Origin: a virus | Taxonomy: Duplodnaviria > Caudoviricetes | Virus record (IMG/VR): IMGVR_UViG_3300021599_001088 | Span: 1-24,222 of that record | DNA: 24,222 nt | Direction: 5' to 3' (one strand) | Shown here: piece by piece, positions 6,193 to 19,654 of the stretch | Numbering within the stretch: the stretch's first letter is position 1 | How the letters are laid out: the number at the start of each line of letters is the position of its first letter | Notes under the pieces: model-generated | Databases searched by the model: none | What the model saw: the letters and a program-made list of their open reading frames with translations, nothing else | What the model was told of the DNA's origin: nothing | Position numbers and translations under genes: made by a program

Positions 6193-6851
6193 TATGCCTC
6201 TTCCAGTGATAGAGACACATTCCAAAAGTCAAAGTTCAAACCACTTCGTTTTACAACCGAGTAACTAAAGTCTGCAAAAAAGACTTCTATGATCTCATTA
6301 TATTTATTTACATTGTTAAACCTGTTGTCTTTTGCACTGCTATCTGTGTCCTCAAAATTTGTGTACTTATCGTAGGCAAGGTAGACCCAAAAAGATCCTT
6401 TGTGGTTATCGTACCAGTTAAGGAGTTCTACTCCACCTGCTCCACCATCTGTTGTAAACTCTAGTGGGTTTGGTCTAGTGAGTACATTTTTTACCATATC
6501 TGGATTTCCATTAGCATCAAATCCTGCTTTTGTATCATAGGCTCTGGATGGCAACATATTCCAAGATGCTGATATATTTAGTTTGTCTGCAATGTGATAT
6601 GACCTCATACGGCCATTGATCATTCTCTCCCGCTTTTCAATTCTAACGGGACTAAAGTCTATTTCTGACCTATTATCATCAGACAGGATTAAAAACTCGC
6701 CATTGGTGGCTGTAAAGCCCGTAGAAGACCCTATTTCGTTTCCATCTGGGATGTAAAATCCATCAACCAAGGTTCCAGGGTTGTCTGCAAATAGCATTGC
6801 TTGGGGTCTAGAATATTTTTTTCTACCAGACATATAAGTATTGTTTGCCAT
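6192..6851 (-). CDS. Distal tail (Dit)-like minor tail protein
   Basis: 219 aa, immediately after the tape measure locus with TAATG coupling. Ends in WNVSLSLEEA, typical of Dit-like proteins, and contains an IEKRERMINGRMR hairpin-like motif. Confidence 0.6.
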   Translation of the reverse strand: MANNTYMSGRKKYSRPQAMLFADNPGTLVDGFYIPDGNEIGSSTGFTATNGEFLILSDDNRSEIDFSPVRIEKRERMINGRMRSYHIADKLNISASWNMLPSRAYDTKAGFDANGNPDMVKNVLTRPNPLEFTTDGGAGGVELLNWYDNHKGSFWVYLAYDKYTNFEDTDSSAKDNRFNNVNKYNEIIEVFFADFSYSVVKRSGLNFDFWNVSLSLEEA

Positions 6852-9800
6852 TAGATTCTAGTCCCCCTAATTCTTTGAGCATCTACGCTCTTTATTTGTA
6901 CCATAACTGCTCTTGCAATCTCATCTGGATTGGCATCAGACTTTACATTTAAGTTAAGGTTATAATTATACACTGAATCCCCAACTGATGAGCCAGAATT
7001 TATTGCCTTCATTGTGTCTGTTCCATATGATTGAACAGCATATTTACTCATAACAAATTCTCCTGGAGTTAGCATCGCTGGAACTGTGTCGGTTCCCATT
7101 GCATATCCACCAGCAGCAAAGTGCTTTGGAATTAGTCTACCAGTTTTTTTATCAATACCAATATCTAAAGGTAGTGGTGCTAAACTGCTCTTAGGTATAC
7201 TTTCTTTAGAAATAGGCTTAGTTTCATAGTTATAATAACCTACAAGGTTTCTTAATTGTTCTGTATCTGATTTACTAATAAAGGCTGGAGTCATACCCCC
7301 AATTGGAAACATTATATTAAAAGGATTTTTTGCATGTCCAAAGAAAGCAGTAGTATTCTGGCGAATTCCATAAGGTGCATCGTATTCACCAATGTTTAAA
7401 GAATGAAGAATTTCGTGCGCTACTACACGTGCTCCACCTGCTCTGTTTTGGGTACCCAAGTTAAGTCCTCTTGGAGAAGTAAGGTTAATCTCTCTAGATC
7501 CAGCAACAGCATCTCCCGCAACACCTTGTTCGGCAAGCCGCTTGCTATCTGCCCAATTTATCTTAATTACATCTGGATCGTTTCTCATTCCAAATGTTGC
7601 TCTCTTAAATTGAACACCAGTTTGTCCTGTCAAATACTGAAGTCCTTGATTAACAATTGGGGAACGGTCTTTTGAATTAAAACGATTAGCCATATCATAA
7701 ACATATATTGTTTCAGCATTTGGGTTAAGTGTTTTCTTTTCCATCCATTTGGTACCATCGCCACTTGTCTCAACCCACTTATTTAAATCTTTATTTTTTC
7801 TATATGAATCTATTCTGTTAAGTATATTTAGTCCTAAGCCCATGCCTTTACCAACTAGCCCTATTGGGTTTAAAATACTACTAAATAATCTGCCAATTTT
7901 AGATTTGTCAACTTTTCCACCAGCAGCAAAGTAACTTGGAATTAGTCCGCCTTTTGACTTTAATAACACATTTCCAGAACCACCACGTAAATTTTTTACT
8001 TCTCTATCGTCCTTTCCAAACAAACTTCCTAACTTGCTAAAAAGTTTACCAAAATCTATTCCAGAGGACATTGATCCAGTTGGGTCCATTGTTCCACCAG
8101 TAAGTGTGCCCTTGTTAGATAGCATTGTTCCACCACTAAGTGCTCCATCGGTAGGTAATATTGATCCCCCACCAATAATTTCATATCTATGGTTTTCAGG
8201 CTTATACTCTGGGTAAGTTGTTTTATATGTATCTGGTAAAAATACTTCTGCTCTTCTATTTTGAGCCATGTTTTCTGGACTTGTATTTGGAACAAGTGGC
8301 TTATAAACACCATGACCTACTGGAACAAACGCAGTTTCTGGCACAAGTTTAGACAAATATTGTGCTGTTGCTTTTGCTCTATTTAGTGAAAGCAAATCAT
8401 TATCTACTCCACCTCTTGAGTCAGCATGGCCTTGAACTACAAGTGATTTTAATTTATGCTTGGCAATTTCCTTTGCAAGACTATCAAGTTCTTGTTTTTG
8501 TTTTTTGTTTAGTTTAAAAGAGTTTGTGTTAAAGTTGGCTCTGATTGGAGGAATTGAAATTTTTATTGTTTTTTTATTTTGTTCTTGATACTCTCTTTTT
8601 GCAGTATCATAAGGCGATTCAAGAAATCTTCCTGTAGTTGGAGGTCCTGGAACTTCTCCGCCATTTGCAAAGTAATTTGGTACTAAGCCACCTTGAGCCA
8701 TAATTAGAGTAGGATCAAATTTCCCAGGCTTAGGAACAGGGGCTGAAGGAGCAACCTTTCCAAAAGGAATTTTGCCTTGGGAATTCTTTAATCCAAAACC
8801 TGGAGATCCAACATTCCAATTTGTAACAATGTCATCAGTTTTATATCCAGAGTATCCCTTGGCTTGTAGTAGTCTTGCAAAATCATCTGTTATAGTTGCT
8901 AGAGGATCTATACCTGCTTTTGCTGCTTCTACTGCTAATTGAGCATCATCAATTGCTCCTTTTCCTAAAGCAGTTTTAATCCAAGCAAGTGGGGATAAAC
9001 TAAGTTTGTGTGCTTCTGTTCCAAATGTATCTCCCATAAAGGTACCTGTTGTTGATCCATATGTACCAGGTCCATACTGATGCATTGCATCAGTTGGTCT
9101 ACCTATACTAGGAAGTAACTCGTCTGGTGACTTGTGAGCATAGTGAACCCAATTTCTTGCTTCTGAAATATTTGCAAAAATCTTTGATAAAATTCCTGAA
9201 GATTTTTTTATTATTGGAGATCCTGCCTGTATTCCTTCTTTACCAATCTTTCCTATACCAAGGAAGTTTAGTGGGAATAGTGCAGCAGCAAATTTATCTC
9301 CTGCTTGGCCTTGCCCAGTTAGTTGCCTTAATACTGATCCTGCCCCCAAAGCATCTGCTTTTCCATTCATTCTCATAAATGATGGAATCATCTTTCCTGC
9401 ATCTTCTTGAGATTTTGTTAGTCTCTGAATGTAACTTGTAAACCAGTTATCCTTTGTTTCAGGTTTAGTTCCATACTTTGGTCTTGACCCAAACTTAGAA
9501 ACCTCTCCACCATCTGAATACATTCCAACATTCATTGCGTCAAGATTCTTAACGCCATATCTCTTTACTGCATCTTTTCTTAAGACATATTCTCCTGGTG
9601 TAAGCATTGCTGGGACTGTATCAGTTCCCTTTGCATACCCTCCAGATTCAAAAACACTTGGAACAAATCCACCTGAAGCAAATGTTGCAACTGCTTGACC
9701 AGGTTTAGCCTTACGCAAGGCTGCTGCAACTCTGGCTGCTTCTGCTGCAAGCATTGCTGCTTCTGCTGCTTCTGCTGCAAGTCTAGCAGCCTCTGCCTTA

Positions 9801-11938
9801 TCTGCTTTGGCTTTGTCTTCAATTTTCTTTTTTTCGTCAATTACTTCTTTTGAAGTTGTGCTGTATGTTGATAACTTGGCAAGAATGTCTTTCCACTTAT
9901 TGTCTATTGCTGTAGTAGAAGCAAGCAGTGCTCCAAGTTCCTTATCAAAATCTTTTGCTGCAAGAGCGTCGGCATCTATCTTTGACTTTATTGCATCCCA
10001 CTCTTTCTGTGTTTTACCTAATTCTGTTTGTTCTGCTACAAGTTTGTCTATTGTTGTTTGAATCACAGAATTTCTATAAGTTAGTTTTGAAATTGTCTCT
10101 TCTAGTGGATTAAGGTTCTCAACTTGAATTTTATTTATTTTGTCTTCTTGAACTCTAATTGCATCAAGTGCTTTTTCACGCTCTTCTTCTTTGTTATAAA
10201 TGTCATCTTGCTTGTCTCGAATTTGTTTTAATATTGCAATTCTTGCTGGATCGTTTTCCATTGCATAAATTCTTTGTGAATTCTCAAACTGCTTCTTGTT
10301 TATCTGCTCTTGAGTTAAACCACCTGGTCTAGCAGTTAAAGAACTAAGTTCATTTTCTCTTGCCTGCTGTAAAGCCTTACTTTGAGCATCGGCAAACCTT
10401 GCAGCGTTTCCTGCTCTTATTTCTTGTACAGCACGGGCTGCTGCAGATATATCTCCAGATGTTATTGCATCTGCTAAATCAAGTTGTTGCTTTTGTTGAT
10501 CTAAAATATTTTGATTGATCTCAGAAACTTTTTCAAGGGCATCGGCTTGTTCGTCATATCTTTTATTAACTTCATCAGCAGCATTTGAGATAAGCGTTAA
10601 ATCATTAGACAAAGCACTATTTTCATCTTGAATACTTTGTATAGCACGATCACCAAATAGTGGATTCATCTCTAATTCACGGTTTAGATCATTAACCTGT
10701 TCACTTAAATCTTCAATTGGTCTTGTGTATTTTTCTTCAATTGCTCTTTGATCTTTTGTAATTGCACGATTGATCTCCTCAATCTTTTCTCTAAATGGTA
10801 TTGCAGATGCTTCTGCATCTCGAATTGCTATCTCATTCTTGTTCATTTCGTCAACTATAGAAGTTGTTCTTTCATCTACACCAGTTCTTAAAAGTCTTTC
10901 TTTAACAGCAAATATTTCATCTAAAGCGTCAAATCCTGGCTGAGCAGATTCTGAATATTCTCCAGCGTTAAAGTTAGATTGAATATCAATTATCTTGCGC
11001 TCTTCAATTGAGTTTAGATAGTCTGCAATATCCTTAGAGAGTAACTTGCCAGCCTTTAAATCATCTATCATAAACTTTGCAAGTTCTGGATCACCAAGAA
11101 CTGCATCAATTTGATCAGTACTGTAGCCTAGCCCCTTCATTTGAGAAACAAGTTTTGGCATTTCCTTGTATATCTTAAAGTCTTCATTTTCACGAATTGC
11201 TTTATTCAAAACTGCTTGACGTTCAAGTGCTGTGTTAGAAGTCTTTATGTTACTAATATATTTATTCCAGTTAGGGTCAGATTTTGAAATTGCCCCCGCA
11301 GCAATGGCTGCTGCTTGGCTTTGGTCTGAAACAACCTCTAAGGCTTGGCCTGCTGAAAGACCACTGCTAATTAAGATATTGTAAGCCTTGGTTTGGTCTT
11401 GTATGTTTTTTATTGTTTCTTCATTGATAAGATTAAAATTACCAAGGTCTCTTTGCATATACCCTTGGTCAACGGCCTCGCCAGTCTCAGTTAGCCCAGT
11501 TATTGTATCTTTTGACCTTGGCTTGCCCTTTGCAAAGGTAAATAGTGCTTTCTTACCTTCTAGTTTTGCAATCTTGTCAAAGTCTTCTGCAGACATTGAA
11601 GATACAGCGTCTCTAAGTCCTTTACCTGCACCAAATCTTAAAAGTCTATTTTGTATGCCATCAAATAAATTAAAAGCATCCTTCTGTGTTTTTTTATTTG
11701 TAAATGCTGCAAGAAGTGACTCTACAGGTTTAAGTGCATTAAATGCATTATCTTTTACCTGCTTTAGATCCATTGCTAATGGCTTTAGGAAATCAAGTGG
11801 ATCTGTCTTTGTTCCGTTACCAGTTGAATTTCCGTTACCAAGACCTAATGCTTTTAGTTTTGCTGCATTTTTAGGGTCTGCTGCCCAGATTGCAGCCTTT
11901 TCATTTATTTGCGGCAAGCCAAGTGCTGGCAAACCCAT
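6851..11938 (-). CDS. Tape measure protein, C-terminal part (coiled coil plus ART-like, OmpA-like and metallopeptidase cassettes); probably continuous with 11905-18507 via a frame change
   Basis: Long coiled-coil region, two GTDTVPAMLTPGE motifs and a TMP-type C-terminus (NYNLNLNVKSDANPDEIARAVM). The frame is open upstream to 12040 and there is no SD before ATG 11938. Confidence 0.8.
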   Translation of the reverse strand: MGLPALGLPQINEKAAIWAADPKNAAKLKALGLGNGNSTGNGTKTDPLDFLKPLAMDLKQVKDNAFNALKPVESLLAAFTNKKTQKDAFNLFDGIQNRLLRFGAGKGLRDAVSSMSAEDFDKIAKLEGKKALFTFAKGKPRSKDTITGLTETGEAVDQGYMQRDLGNFNLINEETIKNIQDQTKAYNILISSGLSAGQALEVVSDQSQAAAIAAGAISKSDPNWNKYISNIKTSNTALERQAVLNKAIRENEDFKIYKEMPKLVSQMKGLGYSTDQIDAVLGDPELAKFMIDDLKAGKLLSKDIADYLNSIEERKIIDIQSNFNAGEYSESAQPGFDALDEIFAVKERLLRTGVDERTTSIVDEMNKNEIAIRDAEASAIPFREKIEEINRAITKDQRAIEEKYTRPIEDLSEQVNDLNRELEMNPLFGDRAIQSIQDENSALSNDLTLISNAADEVNKRYDEQADALEKVSEINQNILDQQKQQLDLADAITSGDISAAARAVQEIRAGNAARFADAQSKALQQARENELSSLTARPGGLTQEQINKKQFENSQRIYAMENDPARIAILKQIRDKQDDIYNKEEEREKALDAIRVQEDKINKIQVENLNPLEETISKLTYRNSVIQTTIDKLVAEQTELGKTQKEWDAIKSKIDADALAAKDFDKELGALLASTTAIDNKWKDILAKLSTYSTTSKEVIDEKKKIEDKAKADKAEAARLAAEAAEAAMLAAEAARVAAALRKAKPGQAVATFASGGFVPSVFESGGYAKGTDTVPAMLTPGEYVLRKDAVKRYGVKNLDAMNVGMYSDGGEVSKFGSRPKYGTKPETKDNWFTSYIQRLTKSQEDAGKMIPSFMRMNGKADALGAGSVLRQLTGQGQAGDKFAAALFPLNFLGIGKIGKEGIQAGSPIIKKSSGILSKIFANISEARNWVHYAHKSPDELLPSIGRPTDAMHQYGPGTYGSTTGTFMGDTFGTEAHKLSLSPLAWIKTALGKGAIDDAQLAVEAAKAGIDPLATITDDFARLLQAKGYSGYKTDDIVTNWNVGSPGFGLKNSQGKIPFGKVAPSAPVPKPGKFDPTLIMAQGGLVPNYFANGGEVPGPPTTGRFLESPYDTAKREYQEQNKKTIKISIPPIRANFNTNSFKLNKKQKQELDSLAKEIAKHKLKSLVVQGHADSRGGVDNDLLSLNRAKATAQYLSKLVPETAFVPVGHGVYKPLVPNTSPENMAQNRRAEVFLPDTYKTTYPEYKPENHRYEIIGGGSILPTDGALSGGTMLSNKGTLTGGTMDPTGSMSSGIDFGKLFSKLGSLFGKDDREVKNLRGGSGNVLLKSKGGLIPSYFAAGGKVDKSKIGRLFSSILNPIGLVGKGMGLGLNILNRIDSYRKNKDLNKWVETSGDGTKWMEKKTLNPNAETIYVYDMANRFNSKDRSPIVNQGLQYLTGQTGVQFKRATFGMRNDPDVIKINWADSKRLAEQGVAGDAVAGSREINLTSPRGLNLGTQNRAGGARVVAHEILHSLNIGEYDAPYGIRQNTTAFFGHAKNPFNIMFPIGGMTPAFISKSDTEQLRNLVGYYNYETKPISKESIPKSSLAPLPLDIGIDKKTGRLIPKHFAAGGYAMGTDTVPAMLTPGEFVMSKYAVQSYGTDTMKAINSGSSVGDSVYNYNLNLNVKSDANPDEIARAVMVQIKSVDAQRIRGTRI
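7106..7947. repeat. 32-bp direct repeat pair (7106-7137 and 7916-7947) flanking the peptidase cassette
   Basis: tccaccagcagcaaagtgctttggaattagtc vs tccaccagcagcaaagtaacttggaattagtc: 29/32 identical, 810 bp (270 codons) apart. They encode LIPKHFAAGG and LIPSYFAAGG. Confidence 0.9.
7236..7712 (-). other. Zinc metallopeptidase domain (metzincin/matrixin-like) within the TMP
   Basis: VVAHEILHSL (HExxH at 7403-7417), candidate third His in FFGHAK (7334-7336) and Met-turn-like NIMFP (7304-7318). Boundaries approximate. Confidence 0.8.
8234..8545 (-). other. OmpA/MotB C-terminal-like peptidoglycan-binding domain within the TMP
   Basis: Signature motifs in correct order: NFNTNSFKL, VVQGHADSRG, NDLLSLNRA, GHGVYKP, NRRAEV. 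Confidence 0.9.
8812..9155 (-). other. ADP-ribosyltransferase-like domain within the TMP
   Basis: HYAHKS..., YGPGTYGST..., LLQAKGYSG..DDIV resemble the H / G-x-G-x-Y / GYDG pattern of phage ART-fold domains. Divergent; boundaries approximate. Confidence 0.55.
9718..9800 (-). repeat. Low-complexity Ala/Glu helical linker (AEAARLAAEAAEAAMLAAEAARVAAA)
   Basis: Imperfect tandem gcttctgctgcaag units in the DNA, between the coiled coil and the cassette array. Confidence 0.7.
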
Positions 11939-14900
11939 GCGAGATGCATTAACTGCAGATCTTTCTGCGTCGGTTCCAGCAGCCTGTAAATAAGCATCAA
12001 GAACACTGAAATTCTTTGAACCTTTGACATACTGTTTGTATTAACATCCAAGTTAATGCCATAAGTTTCTTGTATTTTAGACAATATGTCAACTGCTGAT
12101 GTTATCTCTTCATTAGTATACTTATCTCCTTGATTATTTAATAAGTCAATAACAATAACTTTTGATTCAGTACTTAAGCCAGCCTTTGATAGTAGTTGCG
12201 AAATAACTGCTGCTTCAGCAGTATTACCACCCAAAGTAGTTTCAACTAAAAGAGTCCAGGATGATTGATAATTTGGATTGTTAAGTAATTCAATCAATGT
12301 CATTGGGTCAAGGTTTCCACTTGCAAAATCTAATTGCATCTGTGTTTTGAATGTGCTATTGCTAAGCGATTCTAGTTGGTCAAGTGCTACATTTTTTAAT
12401 TCTGCTAAAGGTCCCTTTTTGTATAGTTCGTTTGCTGCACCTCTAATAGCAGCGTTGAAAGCAGTATCTCCAATTGCATCCTTAGATGCTAGGATAGTCT
12501 TTAGTTGGTCCTGATTTTGTTTGTTTAAGGCATCTAGGGCATCCTTGCGTTCTCCTTCAATTCCTTGAATTTCTTTTTCAGTTTTTGCAGTCTTTAGTTT
12601 AATATCATATTGTTTATTTATTGAGTCTATTAGTTGCTGATTATTTTGCAACTCTTGAATCATTAATTGTGCGCCTGCAGTTCTAATTTTATTTGTTTGT
12701 GCATTAGCATCTCTAATTTGGAAGAATGCTGATGTTAATCCAAAAGAAACAATTGATAGGGTCTTGTCTAAACCACTCTTTTTTGGATCAAAGAAGTCTT
12801 GATAAATATATGGGTTTACGTTTGCTAAACCTGCTTGAACTATTCCCTTTTTCCCCGATAAAGCATTATTTGCATTTTCAAAAGTTCCTCCTTTGCCAGT
12901 AAAAGATTTTGTAAAATCTTGCTTTGCTGCAAAATCAATCATCTTTTTAGAAGTTTGGAATGTTTTTTTATCAATATCTAAAGCAACCTTGATTGGATCT
13001 TTTTCAATATTTTCTCCATTAGGTCCTGTTATTCGAATAATTTCTCCAACTACACTTGCAGATAGAGGGTAATCTTTTAACTCATTACCTAAAGCCATCG
13101 CCAGGCTTCTTGCTTGTTCTGAAGTTATGACACCACTAAGCATTGCACTGGATAGTTGAACTCCAATATTTTGACCAACTTCTTTACTTGACATTCCTGC
13201 TTTTGCTTGTGTATCTACATCTGCAAGTAATGATTTCCCAAACTCGGAATCTAATATTGTTTGTCCAACCTTGCGCTGTTTTTCTGTTGCTCCAGAAAGC
13301 CTATCCTGCCTCTTTTTATCTGCTGCTTCACTTGCGGAAACTGTTTTAGTAATTTGAGACAATTCAATTAATTTTTTATTAGTCATAGACATTGAGTTAG
13401 CCAGAGCAATACCTTCTTCTCTAGCCTTCTTCATAGCAGCATTAAAGGCATAAACTGCTCCTGCAACTGCAAGAAGTCCTGCAACAATTGCTCCTTTTGG
13501 ATCGGTAAGCATTGGAGCAAGACCTGCTACTGCAGATGCACCCATTAATGTCATACCACCTGTTTGATTGCCAGACATCATCATGGCTGATCCAGCCATT
13601 CCAAGACCCATTGCTAAGCCACCTGACACACCACCTATTTTTTGTTGACGAGCCATTCTTTTTTGTTGTTGTTCAGCCTTACGTGCTTGTCTTGCTGTTT
13701 GAGGAGGATTTTTCTTAGCCTCATTAAGAGCCATTCTTTCTTGGTGAACTCTTGCTTTTGTAATTTCAGCCTCAGTTCTTTGCATTCTTATTTTTTCAAT
13801 TGCTCTTTGAATCTGAGTTTCAGTTAATCTATTGTCTTTTCTTAATAAATTTGCTTTCTGAATAAGCCCAGCATTAATCCTTCTTTGTGCTGCCTTACTT
13901 AATCCATCTGATGATGGACCTCTTCTTGTTGATTGTAAATCTAATGTTGGATCTCCCTTGTCTCTTGCAGGAAGTACCACAACTCCTCTGCCTCCAGCAA
14001 TTCTTCCTGCTTGAGACTTTGTAACTACCGACCTTCCCTGACCCTCTTTTACAACTCTATTATCTGATGGCTTGCCATTATCTGGTTTTACTTTTCTCCC
14101 AGCCCTTTTGCTATTTTTTTGTGTTATTTCTTCTAAAACTTGCTTAGGTCTATCATATATATACTCTCCGAGTTTTGCTAAAACAAGACCCTTAAGATTT
14201 CCTGCTCCAAAGTTATATCTAGTTGCAGACTCGTAGAAACCTCTTCCTGCTTTATCAGCAAGTAATGAGCGCATGGCAATTAATTTTTCTCTACTATATC
14301 CTGTCTTTTTGTCACTTGGAACTGTTGGGTTATCCAGTGCTAGTAAGTCTGCTTCTGCTGCTAATGCAACAAGAGATGCTTCATGAGCAGTTGATGGATG
14401 TTGACGTTTTCTCATAAAAGAAGCAGCCTCGTAATATTTATCAATTCCGTCTTTTGGAATTACAGAGTATCCATTATCCTTATTCCATTGTAATAGGCTT
14501 GAAAGACGTTTTTCAGAGTTCATATACCTATTGACTATTAATGAATCAAAAAATCCAGTTCCTCTTAACCATTTTTCAGGTCCTCTTCCTGGTGCTCCAG
14601 TTTTTGCTCTGTGAGATAGTTCTGCTTTTAGTTCTATTCTTGCCTCTTCTGCTGATAATCCAGCATCAGTCATCATCTTTAAATATCTTTCATCAGTGTA
14701 TTCAGTATTGTAAGCCTTTTCTGCAGCCCTTAAAGGTTTTCTAAATTCTTTTTTAGCATTGCCCTTCCAACTACCAGACTCTTTTCCACCTACTCTTAGA
14801 TCTGTTAAAAAGTCGGATGGATTAGCAAACTTTCCCGTAAACTTGTTACTAGCAACAAATCTTCCATTCTTTTTAATAGTACCCATTCTATATAAAAGTT

Positions 14901-17900
14901 TATTAAGAACTTCTTCTTTTGTTCTTGCAAGTCTAGGTGCTTCAACATCTGGATTTGATAAAAATCTTTCCATGTCAACATCAGCAATATATCTGGTTAC
15001 TCCGTCAATCGTTACTGGAGTCATGCTTTGAATGTGATTTAAGAAAGTTGATTGTCTTGGTGAAGTAAACCCTTGGTTTCTCATTGATGGAGGAATCTCA
15101 GCACTGCCACCTTGCCATGCTGCTTTTACGACTGACGCTCTTTGTGGATCACTCAATTCTAAATCTACAAGTCTTGATGCAAACTGATTTTTAGCATCAA
15201 GTTTTAATTCATCTATGATTGACTGTTGTTGTGTGCCTGATCCTGTAATATATCTGCCAACTTGTTCTCTTATTTCAGGGCTAAGCGCTGCTGGATCAAT
15301 TCCTACTATTGCTTTTTTAATACCTTCTCCAGCACGAGCATGAATTGGTTGAAGTTTGTCCCAGTGTGTTCTTTTTCCAGCCTCAAGTCTTTCAAGCATG
15401 TTGTTATATACAACTAGTTCTTCTGGGTCTAGATCCCCCTCCCAAGATTTAATAAGACTTTTTAGTCTAGGAATAGACTTAGAGATTTCTGTTTTTATTG
15501 CTGTGTCATATTGTGCTGGAGTCATGCTTGCTGCAAGAGATGATGTTTCTTGTGCAAAGAACTTCTTTGCTCCACCCTTTACTCCAAGAAGGTTAACAAC
15601 TGCTTGCTCTTCCATGCTTGGCATTGTCTTAGCAAAATCCCTAAAGCCAGATGCTCTATCAAATACTCCAGCAGTTCCAACATCTGCCAATACATTTCCA
15701 GATAGGTTTGCCTGTTGTAAGTCTCTGTCTCCTCTTAGTGTTGACGCAACTAATTGCTTAATCATGTCAGATCTAGAGAACTTGCCATCCATTGCCGCAA
15801 TTCTTGGATCATACGGAGACTCAACAACAACAAACTTTCTTTGTCCTGAAGGATCTGTTGGATCAATCATTGTTCTAATGCTTTGTTTTGGCGCAATTAA
15901 TCCATGAACTTCTCTAGCAATCTCAGTAGCACGAACTTCTGCTAAAGCAGTTCTTTCATCCATTGTTGGTTTTACTACTACGATTTCTCCATTGGGCTTT
16001 CTATATATTCCGCCGACTCCTCGCACAGGGAAACTTCTTCCAGAAAATGGTTGTAATAATGTTCCAAAGTCTGAAGGAGGCAAAGTTCCAAACCTTCCAA
16101 GACTTGCTTGCTGCGCTATTTTTTCTACTATCTGTCTTGACTGAGATGCTTGTTCAGCAGACTTTGGCATTCCAACAAACTGAGGACCAGACTGTTTTTC
16201 TGGATGTGTGCCAGGGTAAGTAGAACGCTTTATCCTTTGCATTATCAAGTCATTGGTGGAATACTTAGCAGGACCAGCAGGAATTCTGCCAGCCATAAAT
16301 CCTGGAACCTTATCATTAAATATTGCACTAATCAAACCTTTATATTTTTCAGTAGTCTTTGCTGGAATAACTGCTTCACCTGGAGCAAGCATTGCAGGTT
16401 GAATATCTCCTGCACCCTTTGGACCTGGTACAGTTAAAATTCCATCTTTATACCTTCTAACTGGAGGTAGCCCTCGTACTGCTGATGTTGCTCCTGGTGC
16501 TCCCCCAGCAAATAGTGCAGGGTTTTGAGATGCCATTGCTCGCATTTGTGTACTAAGAAAATTATAAGATGAAGCAAGTGCATTAACAGATGCTTTTTCA
16601 ACGTTAAATACTTCTATTAATCTTGTGTGAGTTTGATGCAAAGATTGTGATGAAGCAGCATTTTCTATCTGCTCTTGTGTCATATAGTTAAACCCTGCAC
16701 CCAAAACATTTGTCTGTCCGTTTAGTCTTGCTATTCCTCCACGAAGAAGTGCAAAGAATTTAATAGCATTTGCAACACCATTTGCAAGTAAACCAAAGGT
16801 CATCAAAAGAACTGGACCAAGGCCTGCAACTACTCCAACAATAACTGCAATAACCTTTTTAGTCTGATCACTTAGTCCATTAAACTTTTCAAATAGTGAT
16901 CCAAAAAATTTAACAACTGGAGTTAGCGCTTCTAAGAATATTTTTCCTAGTGGCATAATCTCTTGCTTAAATTGTTCTACCGCTGCCTGGAATTTTACAC
17001 CTACGGAATCTTCAATTTTTTTCATTTCTCGCTCAGAGAGAATTGCTAATTCTTCTATTGATGCTCCTGCTAAACCAAGTGCTCTAGATGCCTGAGTACC
17101 ATCTTTTGTAACATTTTGGAATAATGTTGATAGACGTGCAAACTGGAATTTACCAAACATCTGCTCAATTGCACGTGCACGGTTAAGTGGATCCAATTTA
17201 TCAAGTGCTTGTGCAAAACCAACAACAGTTGCTTTGATATCTCCACTGTTTTGATCAACAATTGACTTAATGTTAATGCCCAAGTTTCCAAGAAACTTTG
17301 CTGCCTTATCAGATGGATTAATTAAAGATGCGAGACCAGACTTTAGTGCGTTAGCGCCTTCTGATGCATTGATTCCGCCTTCTTTCATTGCAGTCATAAA
17401 GAATGCAAGATCTTCTACAGATCCACCAAGTTGTTTAATTACTGGCGCTGCTTTTGGAATAGCAACTGTTAAATCTTCAATCGATAAAAGTGTCTGGTTT
17501 TCTACTGCGTTAAGAAAATCAATTTTCTTTGCAAGTTCTTCACTTGAAAGACCAAAAGCACTCTGTAAAGAAATAGTTGTTTCAAGTGCTTGCTGTTGTT
17601 CAACTTGACCAAGAACTGATAACTTTGTTGCTGTTTCAACTTGAGCATTTAATGCTGCTCCTGTAAAACCTGCTGCAGCAGCAGTTGCTGCCATTTCAAC
17701 AGTCTTTGTTACAGAAACGCCATACTTTGTATATTCGCTTGCTAATCTTCTAATATTATTAACTGCTGCATCTGTTTCTGAATCATTAGTAAATGCGTCT
17801 CCATAAACACGCTTAAACTTTACGATCTCTGCTTCAAGTTCTCTGAATGTCTTTGCAGCCATACCACCAAATAATGCAAGTGGCATTGTAAGACCAACCA

Positions 17901-18507
17901 TTAACTGACGACCAGCCCACTGAGTATTCTTACCGAAGTTCAGGAGTTGTGTAGATCCCTGCTTAAGTAACTGATTTAAGAACTGCTGTCTTTGTGCAGC
18001 ATACTGAATTCTTGTTCCAAGTTCAGTAAATTTACCATTTGCCATCGCAAGACTTTTTGGCATAATCTTAATTGCATCCATAAATCCAGCATTGGACTTA
18101 TTCATTTGGATGTATTGTGCCTGTAAAGCCTTTACTCTGTCTCGGCGAGCACGGTTTATAATTTCTCTTTCTGCTGCAAAGGCTTTTCCAAGAACACGGG
18201 TATTGGCAGTTGCTGCTGCCATTGTGTATCGATAGTACTCACGAAGAGATAATTTATTTTTTTCTAAGGCAGAAGTAAATGCAAGTGTACTTCCTGCTAC
18301 CTTAACTTGACTTGCAGAAAACTTTCCTGTAGCACCAATAGATTGTAGTAGTTGAGCGTTTAAACCTTTTTGTGCATTTGCAGCAGCCAGGTTGCCCTCA
18401 GCAAGTGATTGATGAAACCTGCTGAGGCCTGCCTGAAGTAAACGAAGTTGTGCAAGGGCGGCATCTGTATTAAAATTAATATTAATATTAGAGTTTACAT
18501 CTGCCAT
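11905..18507 (-). CDS. Tape measure protein, N-terminal part (phage minor-tail/TP901-type core, hydrophobic segments, kinase-like insert)
   Basis: 2200 aa, follows the chaperone genes. Core motifs DFLNAVENQT, GGINASEGANALKSGL and RARAIEQMFGK. Hydrophobic stretches near 16780-16856 and 13443-13638. The last ~33 codons look out of frame. Confidence 0.9.
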   Translation of the reverse strand: MADVNSNININFNTDAALAQLRLLQAGLSRFHQSLAEGNLAAANAQKGLNAQLLQSIGATGKFSASQVKVAGSTLAFTSALEKNKLSLREYYRYTMAAATANTRVLGKAFAAEREIINRARRDRVKALQAQYIQMNKSNAGFMDAIKIMPKSLAMANGKFTELGTRIQYAAQRQQFLNQLLKQGSTQLLNFGKNTQWAGRQLMVGLTMPLALFGGMAAKTFRELEAEIVKFKRVYGDAFTNDSETDAAVNNIRRLASEYTKYGVSVTKTVEMAATAAAAGFTGAALNAQVETATKLSVLGQVEQQQALETTISLQSAFGLSSEELAKKIDFLNAVENQTLLSIEDLTVAIPKAAPVIKQLGGSVEDLAFFMTAMKEGGINASEGANALKSGLASLINPSDKAAKFLGNLGINIKSIVDQNSGDIKATVVGFAQALDKLDPLNRARAIEQMFGKFQFARLSTLFQNVTKDGTQASRALGLAGASIEELAILSEREMKKIEDSVGVKFQAAVEQFKQEIMPLGKIFLEALTPVVKFFGSLFEKFNGLSDQTKKVIAVIVGVVAGLGPVLLMTFGLLANGVANAIKFFALLRGGIARLNGQTNVLGAGFNYMTQEQIENAASSQSLHQTHTRLIEVFNVEKASVNALASSYNFLSTQMRAMASQNPALFAGGAPGATSAVRGLPPVRRYKDGILTVPGPKGAGDIQPAMLAPGEAVIPAKTTEKYKGLISAIFNDKVPGFMAGRIPAGPAKYSTNDLIMQRIKRSTYPGTHPEKQSGPQFVGMPKSAEQASQSRQIVEKIAQQASLGRFGTLPPSDFGTLLQPFSGRSFPVRGVGGIYRKPNGEIVVVKPTMDERTALAEVRATEIAREVHGLIAPKQSIRTMIDPTDPSGQRKFVVVESPYDPRIAAMDGKFSRSDMIKQLVASTLRGDRDLQQANLSGNVLADVGTAGVFDRASGFRDFAKTMPSMEEQAVVNLLGVKGGAKKFFAQETSSLAASMTPAQYDTAIKTEISKSIPRLKSLIKSWEGDLDPEELVVYNNMLERLEAGKRTHWDKLQPIHARAGEGIKKAIVGIDPAALSPEIREQVGRYITGSGTQQQSIIDELKLDAKNQFASRLVDLELSDPQRASVVKAAWQGGSAEIPPSMRNQGFTSPRQSTFLNHIQSMTPVTIDGVTRYIADVDMERFLSNPDVEAPRLARTKEEVLNKLLYRMGTIKKNGRFVASNKFTGKFANPSDFLTDLRVGGKESGSWKGNAKKEFRKPLRAAEKAYNTEYTDERYLKMMTDAGLSAEEARIELKAELSHRAKTGAPGRGPEKWLRGTGFFDSLIVNRYMNSEKRLSSLLQWNKDNGYSVIPKDGIDKYYEAASFMRKRQHPSTAHEASLVALAAEADLLALDNPTVPSDKKTGYSREKLIAMRSLLADKAGRGFYESATRYNFGAGNLKGLVLAKLGEYIYDRPKQVLEEITQKNSKRAGRKVKPDNGKPSDNRVVKEGQGRSVVTKSQAGRIAGGRGVVVLPARDKGDPTLDLQSTRRGPSSDGLSKAAQRRINAGLIQKANLLRKDNRLTETQIQRAIEKIRMQRTEAEITKARVHQERMALNEAKKNPPQTARQARKAEQQQKRMARQQKIGGVSGGLAMGLGMAGSAMMMSGNQTGGMTLMGASAVAGLAPMLTDPKGAIVAGLLAVAGAVYAFNAAMKKAREEGIALANSMSMTNKKLIELSQITKTVSASEAADKKRQDRLSGATEKQRKVGQTILDSEFGKSLLADVDTQAKAGMSSKEVGQNIGVQLSSAMLSGVITSEQARSLAMALGNELKDYPLSASVVGEIIRITGPNGENIEKDPIKVALDIDKKTFQTSKKMIDFAAKQDFTKSFTGKGGTFENANNALSGKKGIVQAGLANVNPYIYQDFFDPKKSGLDKTLSIVSFGLTSAFFQIRDANAQTNKIRTAGAQLMIQELQNNQQLIDSINKQYDIKLKTAKTEKEIQGIEGERKDALDALNKQNQDQLKTILASKDAIGDTAFNAAIRGAANELYKKGPLAELKNVALDQLESLSNSTFKTQMQLDFASGNLDPMTLIELLNNPNYQSSWTLLVETTLGGNTAEAAVISQLLSKAGLSTESKVIVIDLLNNQGDKYTNEEITSAVDILSKIQETYGINLDVNTNSMSKVQRISVFLMLIYRLLEPTQKDLQLMHLAWVCQHLACRK
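15370..16080 (-). other. HipA/PI3K-PI4K-like kinase domain within the TMP
   Basis: Gly loop GVGGIY, VVVK, AE..A...HGL.AP, catalytic-loop-like GDRDLQQAN and metal-binding ADVG, in kinase order. Confidence 0.7.
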
Positions 18508-18527: not shown

Positions 18528-18869
18528 TTATTTGTTTAGCGAATTAAGCAATGCTCCAGCATCAGAGTTTTGGAGGCCTGATGCCACATCGATAATTTGA
18601 TATACAGTTGGAAGGTCTAGAAGATCTTCTAGCGCTTCTCTGTCTTCTGCCAATTCTGGCTTGAATTGCTTTAGTGCAATCTGTGCACAATCAATAAGAA
18701 TATCCATTGACTTATCATTATCGTCTGATGCCTCTTGTAGCAAAGCAAACTTAGCCATAAAAGGTCTAAGTAGTGATAACTTAAGTGGTCTTACTGAAAG
18801 TTCTGTACCGTCCATTAGTGTGATGGTCTTGCCGTCTGTAGTTTTTGTTGTTGAAGGCTTGTCAGCCAT
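18528..18869 (-). CDS. Tail assembly chaperone (gpG-like, short)
   Basis: 113 aa between the major tail and tape measure genes, with a strong AAGGAGG RBS. Alignable with the N-terminal half of 18922-19602. Confidence 0.75.
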   Translation of the reverse strand: MADKPSTTKTTDGKTITLMDGTELSVRPLKLSLLRPFMAKFALLQEASDDNDKSMDILIDCAQIALKQFKPELAEDREALEDLLDLPTVYQIIDVASGLQNSDAGALLNSLNK

Positions 18870-18921: not shown

Positions 18922-19602
18922 TTAATCTATTTTCTCGTAAGATAGGCCCATTCCAATTCCAAAACCTGCCTTTTCTGCATTAATTCCTTGCAATGCCAAA
19001 ATATCTTTAGAGTTTGCTGCTTGTCCTCCGCTAAACACTCTAGCCTTCATTTCTTCCCAAGCATCTTGCTTACCACTTGATTTATCTAAATCAACACCTT
19101 GCATTGCAGCAAGAAACTTCTTGTTAGAATAATCAAGGTCTCTCTTAACCTTAAGAGTAGCCATAATCTCTGGCATTGACATAGATGATTCTAGTTCGTC
19201 ATAATCTTGCCAGATTCCCTGCAAAAAAACCTCTGACTCTATCTCTGCTAAATCTAGTTCATCCCAGGTAGATCCACTCTCTTTTGCTTGTTCTTTTACT
19301 GGCTCTTCAGATTTTTCATTTATCTTAATTCCTGCTGAATAATCTAAAAGTTTATATATTGTAGGCATATCAATATTATCTTCTAACTGCTCTTGAGTTT
19401 TTATTTTTGGAAAATACTGTCTCATTGTTATTGTTGCACATTTACACAAAGCATCGATTGCCTCAATATCATTTGTTGCTGTTTTTACATTTTCAAACTC
19501 TTCTAAAAATAACTTTAAATATTTTATTTTTAATGGCGTTATATACAGTTCTGTTCCATCAAAGAGTTCTATAATTGAGGTTTTGTATATTTCTGTAGGC
19601 AT
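18922..19602 (-). CDS. Tail assembly chaperone (gpGT-like, G domain fused in frame to a T-like domain)
   Basis: Likely start ATG 19602 (MPTEIYK, 226 aa); the 19632 start lies inside the terminator. The C-terminal half (WQDYDELESSMSMPEIMATL) resembles gpT-like extensions. Confidence 0.7.
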   Translation of the reverse strand: MPTEIYKTSIIELFDGTELYITPLKIKYLKLFLEEFENVKTATNDIEAIDALCKCATITMRQYFPKIKTQEQLEDNIDMPTIYKLLDYSAGIKINEKSEEPVKEQAKESGSTWDELDLAEIESEVFLQGIWQDYDELESSMSMPEIMATLKVKRDLDYSNKKFLAAMQGVDLDKSSGKQDAWEEMKARVFSGGQAANSKDILALQGINAEKAGFGIGMGLSYEKID

Positions 19603-19608
19603 TATATA

Positions 19609-19617
19609 AGTATACCA
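19609..19617 (-). promoter_or_regulatory. Extended -10 promoter TGGTATACT, probably producing a leaderless mRNA
   Basis: The -10 hexamer is separated by only 6 nt from ATG 19602. There is no SD, and it directly follows a terminator. Confidence 0.6.
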
Positions 19618-19654
19618 AACAGAAAGGCCCAACCCCGAAGGATTGAGCCTCTCC
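19617..19654 (-). terminator. Rho-independent terminator after the major tail gene
   Basis: AGGCTCAATCC-TTCG-GGGTTGGGCCT stem (cUUCGg loop, G-U pairs on the minus strand) followed by TTCTGTTT. Confidence 0.85.

Follow-up and report, generated by a model that had tools for sequence, protein, structure and literature searches.

A phage tape measure protein with enzyme-like cassettes separated by copies of a recurring peptide

[quoted passage not shown] From the letters alone, an earlier, sequence-only reading proposed that this TMP is a carrier of interchangeable effectors, with the linker peptide acting as recombination homology, as a proteolytic release site, or both. The locus raises two questions, namely, whether the cargo is modular and what the linker is. 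Comparison with related TMPs indicates that the cargo is very probably modular and that the linkers are reused copies of part of a conserved TMP element.

The window reads the TMP as two open reading frames (ORFs), 11905-18507 (2,200 amino acids [aa]) and 6851-11938 (1,695 aa). These are one TMP, because 178 bases lacking in the window at 12005/12006 are present in five sequencing runs and in the near-identical contig L001, where the ORF is uninterrupted. Specifically, contigs of five of the eight runs (X1, X4, X5, X6, and X7) span the site with the additional bases, those of the remaining three end there (two with loose ends), and the joined form of the window was found in none of the eight. 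The absence of these bases from the window is most likely an assembly error. A programmed frameshift or a split gene at 12005 was also considered and rejected, given that the window lacks the 178 bases. Searching with the TMP core, we found 80 loci; in 52 of them, the TMP is complete in a single ORF, at lengths of 2,713-3,957 aa. The protein also matches phrog_10030 (E = 1.5e-93), and its gene follows the tail tube and chaperone genes and precedes the tail-tip genes, the same order as in Streptomyces phages Tomas and Comrade. The features of the gene are collected in Table 1.

Table 1. Features of the tape measure protein gene in the window (positions on the 24,222-nt stretch)
Feature	Position	Strand	Remark
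TMP gene	6851..18507	-	a single gene population-wide; the near-identical L001 encodes 3,940 aa
TMP core	17152..17733	-	PF10145 PhageMin_Tail (aa 259-452); E = 1.4e-28, above cut-off
Hydrophobic, probable membrane segment (aa 549-579)	16771..16863	-	just ahead of the first cargo array
Element M1 (RRYKDG ... DIQPAMLAPGE ... VPGFMAG)	16288..16458	-	opens the N-terminal array; low confidence/disordered in the model
Kinase cassette	15319..16287	-	CotH/CtkA/HipA/PI4K-like atypical kinase fold, from structure comparison
Degenerate linker KKAIVG	15301..15318	-	border between kinase and next cassette; pLDDT <50 at model residues 391-394
"Unknown" cassette	13972..15300	-	modeled as a folded domain, for which a His-Me finger (HNH-like) nuclease is predicted
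PARDKG	13954..13971	-	weak candidate closing linker; weakest of the eight peptides
Gap in the window (178 bp lacking)	12005..12006	.	probable assembly error behind the apparent frameshift
Element M2 (FASGG-FESGG ... DTVPAMLTPGE ... YSDGGEV)	9500..9688	-	opens the C-terminal array
Leader A	9251..9499	-	hydrophobic helix at its end; ahead of other ART-like domains or kinase in other TMPs
ADP-ribosyltransferase (ART)-like domain	8756..9178	-	H, YGxGxY, and GYxG motifs; lacks the canonical catalytic Glu
Linker GGLVPNYFANGGEV	8651..8692	-	
OmpA-like peptidoglycan-binding cassette	7952..8650	-	PF00691; domain about 8255-8533
Linker GGLIPSYFAAGGKV	7910..7951	-	
Zincin-like peptidase cassette	7136..7909	-	HEILH at about 7403-7417
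Element M3 (LIPKHFAAGG ... DTVPAMLTPGE)	6980..7135	-	terminal copy common to ordinary relatives
Conserved C-terminal segment	6851..6979	-	presumed tail-tip anchor; 44-75% identity in relatives

All eight linker peptides of the sequence-only reading were found at their positions, with C-terminal spacings of 849, 741, and 810 nt. By alignment, the linkers are identified as copies of the head of a TMP element of ~60 aa with the consensus (F/Y)xxGG...G..D.VPA.L.PGE...(F/Y)xxG, of which the window contains three full copies, M1, M2, and M3. RRYKDG and VPGFMAG proved to be the two ends of M1, YSDGGEV is the closing half of M2, a full element that had gone unlisted, and KKAIVG is aligned in relatives with KKLMAG, KKLALG, PKYETG, and KKFEGG. 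A position-specific scoring matrix for which only the terminal elements of relatives (13 distinct ones) were used was tested on the L001 protein, where the linkers scored 39.2 (M2 head), 25.8, 33.3, and 21.2 bits compared with a maximum of 7.0 bits in 200 shuffles; YSDGGEV was marginal (7.6 bits), and the four N-terminal peptides scored below 5 bits with this matrix.

Ordinary relatives have one element copy after the TMP core and another ~76 aa from the C terminus. The element profile matches gp16 of mycobacteriophage Douge (PDB 8zdo) twice (E = 3e-16) and, weakly, two further TMP chains (8vjh, E = 0.05; 8rk3, E = 0.097). M3 matches 56 cultured phage records, and most of the best 30 of these 56 are annotated as TMPs. 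The TMPs of Tomas (E = 7e-7 and 0.014) and Comrade (E = 0.002 and 0.029) each have two copies, which surround a nonhelical segment. Because the element is found in TMPs of cultured phages, the linker is regarded as reusing part of an element that is general to TMPs. The bracketed segment of Tomas (L162) and Comrade (L163), at TMP aa ~1640-2070, contains what we take, from its motifs, to be a lysozyme-like domain and an M23 peptidase domain. Further matches of the element are large-cyanophage proteins with the annotation "endolysin" or "transmembrane protein" (NC_070962.1, NC_015279.1, and others), so its occurrence may extend beyond siphovirus TMPs.

The domain order is not fixed among the relatives: the kinase, peptidase, ART-like, and OmpA-like domains recur elsewhere in other positions and orders. 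The kinase is encoded in 10 of the 56 relatives longer than 2,600 aa that were found by the TMP core, and the two-element C-terminal array in 4 of the 52 complete ones. L003, with a 90% identical core, has no C-terminal array, and L090 carries a single, different cassette between M2- and M3-like elements. The kinase is present in L016 and absent from L018; the two match up to the first MAG linker and again past the second one, and the switch point lies within 9 identical bases inside the linker. The peptidase cassette (55-61% identical) is last in the window, but in L082, P0002, P0004, and P0005 no other cassette stands between it and the opening element; its homology begins at one linker and stops near the next. 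The TMP core of L082 is only 36% identical. The OmpA cassette, second in the window, comes first in P0043 and P0046, and the ART-like domain (50-66% identical) occurs in nine further proteins with varied leaders and neighbors, in five of which a linker stands at its end. L152 and L160 have the arrangement element-X-kinase-element, and L144 has element-kinase-X'-element, X and X' being 24% identical; in P0107, P0109, and P0110, the kinase is preceded by a relative of the ART leader of the window. A kinase search of 1.84 billion representatives yielded 164 matches. Among the 150 of these that were listed, 128 are at least 1,400 aa long, and all 128 contain the element and 110 the TMP core; the start of the kinase ranges from about residue 660 to residue 2860.

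Some of the relatives carry cargo beyond that of the window. At aa 2057-3430, the L082 TMP has an array of five or more cassettes fenced by linkers; the peptidase of the window, another HExxH domain, and one more ART-like segment are among them. A Trp/Pro/Gly-rich cassette of ~110 aa, X1, recurs in L007, L032, L082, P0006, P0007, and P0010, mostly first after the opening element. LysM-like repeats (VKSGxTLSxIA) lie just ahead of the terminal element in L018, L031, L033, L043, L046, and L051. No Pfam cargo families were detected in 14 linker-bearing proteins.

The variation in content and order anticipated by the sequence-only reading was thus borne out, whereas its placement of the breakpoints at the linkers held only in part. 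Boundaries were counted in 57 nonredundant C-terminal arrays, to which dereplication had reduced an initial 63; five proteins and mis-segmented ones were excluded. Among 258 internal homology boundaries, which are not independent, 97 lie within 25 aa of a linker, compared with 15% of all positions. A strict linker motif, chosen after the flanks of the kinase had been viewed, occurs upstream of the kinase in 65 of 124 cases and downstream in 39 of 145, compared with 350 of 6,840 control windows. Many of the off-linker boundaries coincide with a second junction, between a leader ending in a hydrophobic helix and the catalytic domain; this arrangement resembles pre-toxin domains, although Pfam gave no support. 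On these counts, the linkers appear to be preferred, not exclusive, breakpoints.

As for the linker as recombination homology, exchange through short homology remains a plausible way of moving cassettes, whereas pure DNA homology is disfavored. The window linker copies are 38-76% identical over 45 nt, their longest exact matches extend over about 5-10 bases (17 in one pair), and codons for the same residue are identical in 36 of 58 cases (25.6 expected; pairs not independent) and, between M2 and M3, in 12 of 24 (11.4 expected). Given this low DNA identity, a protein-level role is favored, and what is conserved appears to be the peptide. It is improbable that the linker is a recombination scar only, that is, a duplicated piece of the element that provides DNA homology and has no protein function. 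The L016/L018 switch, the pair sharing 17 bases, and the overall codon count are compatible with a scar, but the other linker pairs share 5-9 exact bases at 38-73% identity, M2 and M3 are at synonymous saturation with the peptide nonetheless kept, and the peptide persists between cassettes where the cores are as distant as that of L082.

The sequence-only reading had also predicted that the segments fold independently, which agrees with the models of both N-terminal cassettes. An AlphaFold2 model of M1, the kinase, and the "unknown" cassette, built from 34 sequences (mean pLDDT 76, pTM 0.42), shows two separate, confident domains joined by low-confidence linkers, M1 and KKAIVG. The first domain is similar to CotH (Z-score = 11.9, rmsd 3.9, 216 aligned), CtkA (Z-score = 10.1), and HipA (Z-score = 9.1), also matches MavQ and PI4K, and resembles, in BFVD, PI3/4K-like domains of phages that occur as fusions with portal, ART, and TMP proteins; the best Foldseek rows are all kinases, with an E-value of only 0.02. 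The model includes a full helical C-lobe, aligned up to residue 376-385. K172, D253, D255, N260, and D268 are invariant in the 34 sequences, and we take K172 to be the ATP-binding Lys and D255, N260, and D268 the catalytic or metal-binding residues, as in kinase motifs. A kinase fold is thus supported by the model, and phosphotransfer is predicted. No relative of the cargo emerged when the kinase, "unknown," ART, and peptidase sequences were searched against the PDB, and the kinase was unmatched among 50,697 cultured phage records.

The second domain, the "unknown" cassette, contains an invariant His (near 14611-14613) and an invariant Asn (near 14530-14532). In the model, a strand (621-625) ending at the invariant H625 is followed by a second strand (643-648) and a helix (649-654) with the invariant N652, an arrangement resembling that of His-Me finger nucleases. 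HHalign comparison with a related cassette paired the same motif (E = 0.011, probability 3.7%), and the best score in the Atlas search was only 0.76. No family or PDB sequence match was obtained, and the fold-search lists from the joint model were filled by the kinase. A hidden Markov model of the cassette reached 9 of 42 N-terminal regions, and HHalign gave the other groups probabilities of 0.1-2% despite similar His motifs. The model-based assignment as a His-Me-type nuclease is therefore a prediction. The divergence of this cassette, with identity falling to 21-34% among relatives, would fit decayed filler that merely lengthens the tail, an explanation that is scarcely credible for the cargo given the invariant catalytic-type residues in the 34 sequences, the confident folds of both N-terminal cassettes, and the 50-66% identity of cassettes between distant TMPs.

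Among the C-terminal cassettes, the OmpA-like domain is supported by a PF00691 match of 51.1 bits (cut-off 27.2); many NCBIfam OmpA-like models also match, every one below its own cut-off. The GHADS...LSLNRA motif, with the Asp and Arg that in OmpA-like domains bind the peptide stem, is present and is retained in P0043 and P0046. A metagenome scan with this cassette found two identical contigs and 15 matches at 33-41% identity, the latter covering the OmpA domain only. The ART-like domain reached an Atlas score of 0.92 (166 shared features) with a cluster in which 24% of the members carry PF18760 (ART-PolyVal). It had no Pfam or PDB match, and a single-sequence model of the cassette gave a pLDDT of 34. 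In 10 sequences, no Glu is conserved and one Asp is at least 90% conserved; the H and YGxGxY-type motifs resemble those of ADP-ribosyltransferases. Positions 8756-9178 are thus best described as ART-like, with a predicted enzymatic role. Within this domain, 8831-8917 differs from L001 and from runs X2, X4, X5, and X6 by nine substitutions in 87 bp, with the remainder nearly identical; this is a local allele patch, possibly resulting from recombination or diversifying selection.

The last cassette is predicted to be a zincin with peptidase activity. HEILH is invariant in the three aligned sequences and also present in P0001-P0005, and a conserved His 22 residues past the HExxH motif is followed by a conserved Met. 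In metzincins, a third His follows HExxH by six residues and is accompanied by a Met-turn. Reprolysin_3 matched below its cut-off (E = 0.07). Twelve base pairs (four codons) at 7771-7782 are present in the window and in distant homologs and absent from L001.

The host is likely actinobacterial because the TMP core is 28-30% identical to the TMPs of Streptomyces phages (Stanwilliamsviridae) and whiB is present in all five large related contigs tested; in the window, which as a fragment is 22% complete, whiB was not found. This gene has been used as an actinophage marker (PMC6802176; statements on cited papers refer to their accessible parts). Labels of the runs containing the window are mainly lake or freshwater, and some are "fungus metagenome." A "Trojan horse" role has been proposed for ADP-ribosyltransferases of freshwater phages, some of them actinophages (PMC6802176). 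It is very improbable that the cargo here likewise targets protist grazers that eat infected cells and not the bacterial host. The kinase fold is shared with CtkA, MavQ, and PI4K, which would suit such a target, but a common fold reveals no target; the proposal concerns VIP2-like enzymes, whereas the ART-like domain resembles ART-PolyVal clusters, and the OmpA-like wall-binding domain and the position in the tail lumen point to a bacterial host.

How the cargo could act is suggested by the behavior of other TMPs, and on balance we lean toward the following scheme: one TMP, with two variable regions of exchangeable, linker-fenced modules, is stored stretched, ejected, and likely cut at the linkers. 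As in other phages, the TMP would lie extended in the tail, ~590 nm long at 0.15 nm per residue, presumably held at the tail tip by the conserved C-terminal segment, in analogy to the TMPs of PMC12617516 and PMC13033339, and would be ejected before the DNA. The cargo is likely stored extended as well because the enzyme motif of phage TM4 counts toward tail length, its removal (114 aa) making the tail about 20 nm shorter (PMC1796659). Following ejection, the cargo would refold and the TMP would likely be cut at the (F/Y)xxGG peptides, freeing the modules. Cutting at the linkers is favored because lambda gpH is cut near the C terminus, in a glycine-rich region (site and catalyst unknown; PMC12617516), and so is the TMP of the T5-like phage DT57C (PMC10713586). 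The predicted site of action is the cell wall for the OmpA-like and zincin modules and the interior of the actinobacterial host, on defense or expression proteins, for the kinase, the His-Me-type nuclease, and the ART-like module with its leader. The arrays would grow as the conserved element is duplicated and as its head recombines through short homology; whatever is inserted there would be retained because the peptide would already be a processing or release point. A candidate for the cutting protease is the ~60-aa element itself, with its near-invariant Asp and Glu. In a wider and more tentative version, the (F/Y)xxGG-bracketed element could be a general processing signal of siphovirus TMPs, possibly a self-cutting protease, that freshwater actinophages multiplied into a polyprotein code releasing swappable kinases, ADP-ribosyltransferases, nucleases, and wall enzymes at injection; such a generalization is possible, if doubtful.

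Several observations weigh against the linker-cut carrier. Among the homology boundaries counted, 161 of 258 are more than 25 aa from any linker, and the C-flank of the kinase lacks the strict motif in 106 of 145 cases. There is no N-side linker at cassette X1 in L007 or at the variable regions of ~500 aa in L024, L026, L028, L049, L069, and L072. The N-terminal linkers KKAIVG and PARDKG are degenerate; lambda gpH, a presumed bearer of the element, was not matched in PDB searches with it; and the ART, zincin, and nuclease assignments have no family match above cut-off. The accessible part of the Douge paper models a TMP of 1,699 residues and does not contain the word "cleavage" (PMC13033339), and in Thermus phage P23-45, a TMP-fused RNA polymerase is present in virions within full-size gp96 (PMC10770324).

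The gp96 polymerase is also a precedent for packaging without cutting and, with the degenerate N-terminal linkers, fits a carrier that is never cut. In this alternative, the ejected TMP would stay anchored in the membrane, its modules would refold as beads, and the peptide would be a spacer, structural or for chaperone binding, in which insertions are tolerated. The N-terminal array is flanked by hydrophobic segments (aa 549-579 and 1670-1688), so the cargo could be placed in the cytoplasm without release. We consider an uncut carrier rather unlikely: the doubled (F/Y)xxGG, its repeats at the element ends and between cassettes, and the retention of the aromatic residue and Gly in distant phages are more readily explained by a recognition site than by a loose spacer, and lambda and T5-type TMPs are cut near their C termini.

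Enzyme-bearing TMPs and polyvalent proteins are already known. TM4 gp17 with its mt3 motif (PMC1796659) and Douge gp16 (PDB 8zdo; PMC13033339), which has the same element in two copies, are likewise siphovirus TMPs with enzyme domains counted in tail length. They carry one or two cell-wall enzymes, whereas the window TMP has five modules, including the kinase, ART-like, and nuclease-like ones, which are reordered among relatives; a linker grammar is not described for either in the accessible parts of these papers. P23-45 gp96 is also a giant TMP (5,002 aa) with an enzyme that acts in the cytoplasm, but this is a single, fixed RNA polymerase, packaged uncut, with no cassette array reported in the accessible text (PMC10770324). 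Lambda gpH/gpH*/gpHC, unlike the window TMP, carries no cargo (PMC12617516).

Polyvalent proteins likewise combine shuffled kinase, ART, metallopeptidase, and nuclease domains in one virion-borne polypeptide (Iyer et al. 2017, PMC5512222), and phage effectors fused to MuF or portal proteins carry several conflict-type domains in the same manner (PMC5576092). The window TMP shares the defining combination of polyvalent proteins, at least two conflict-type domains with variable architecture in one polypeptide, and differs in that the carrier is the TMP and the modules are fenced by a repeated peptide. In addition, the polyvalent-protein kinase lacks the whole C-terminal subdomain (PMC5512222), whereas the modeled window kinase appears to retain its C-lobe. 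By analogy with TMP behavior, we infer polyvalent-type delivery into the host with the DNA. Polymorphic toxin systems similarly couple a leader to an exchangeable catalytic domain (PMC3482391). The window TMP, by comparison, has several cassettes in one essential structural protein, and neither an immunity gene nor an orphan cassette adjoins the TMP gene within this window. The word "tape" does not occur in the main text of PMC5512222, nor does "tape measure" in the accessible text of PMC3482391. The linker grammar of TMP cassettes thus appears undescribed in the literature searched, which yielded no account of linker-fenced TMP cassette arrays and mostly left out subscription journals and supplements, including the architecture files of PMC5512222 that could list TMP fusions. 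The arrangement suggests that, in phages of abundant freshwater Actinobacteria, pre-early host-takeover and counter-defense enzymes are routinely delivered by way of the tail ruler. The linker flags cassette borders in hundreds of unannotated proteins and can serve to find effectors that escape Pfam. It is also a specific candidate in the old question of where and how TMPs are cut, which Douge, Tomas, and Comrade, cultured phages with a doubled element, make testable.

As a whole, the window conforms to a head-tail module, on the minus strand, with a capsid-like gene, connectors, the tail tube, two chaperone-like genes, the TMP, and tail-tip genes. The TMP gene is flanked on one side by the chaperone-like ORF 18528-18869 and on the other by a gene for a 219-aa protein and then a minor tail protein. 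ORFs 18528-18869 and 18922-19632 are adjacent and both match phrog_10504 (the second also phrog_10474), forming a duplicated tail assembly chaperone-like pair ahead of the very long TMP.

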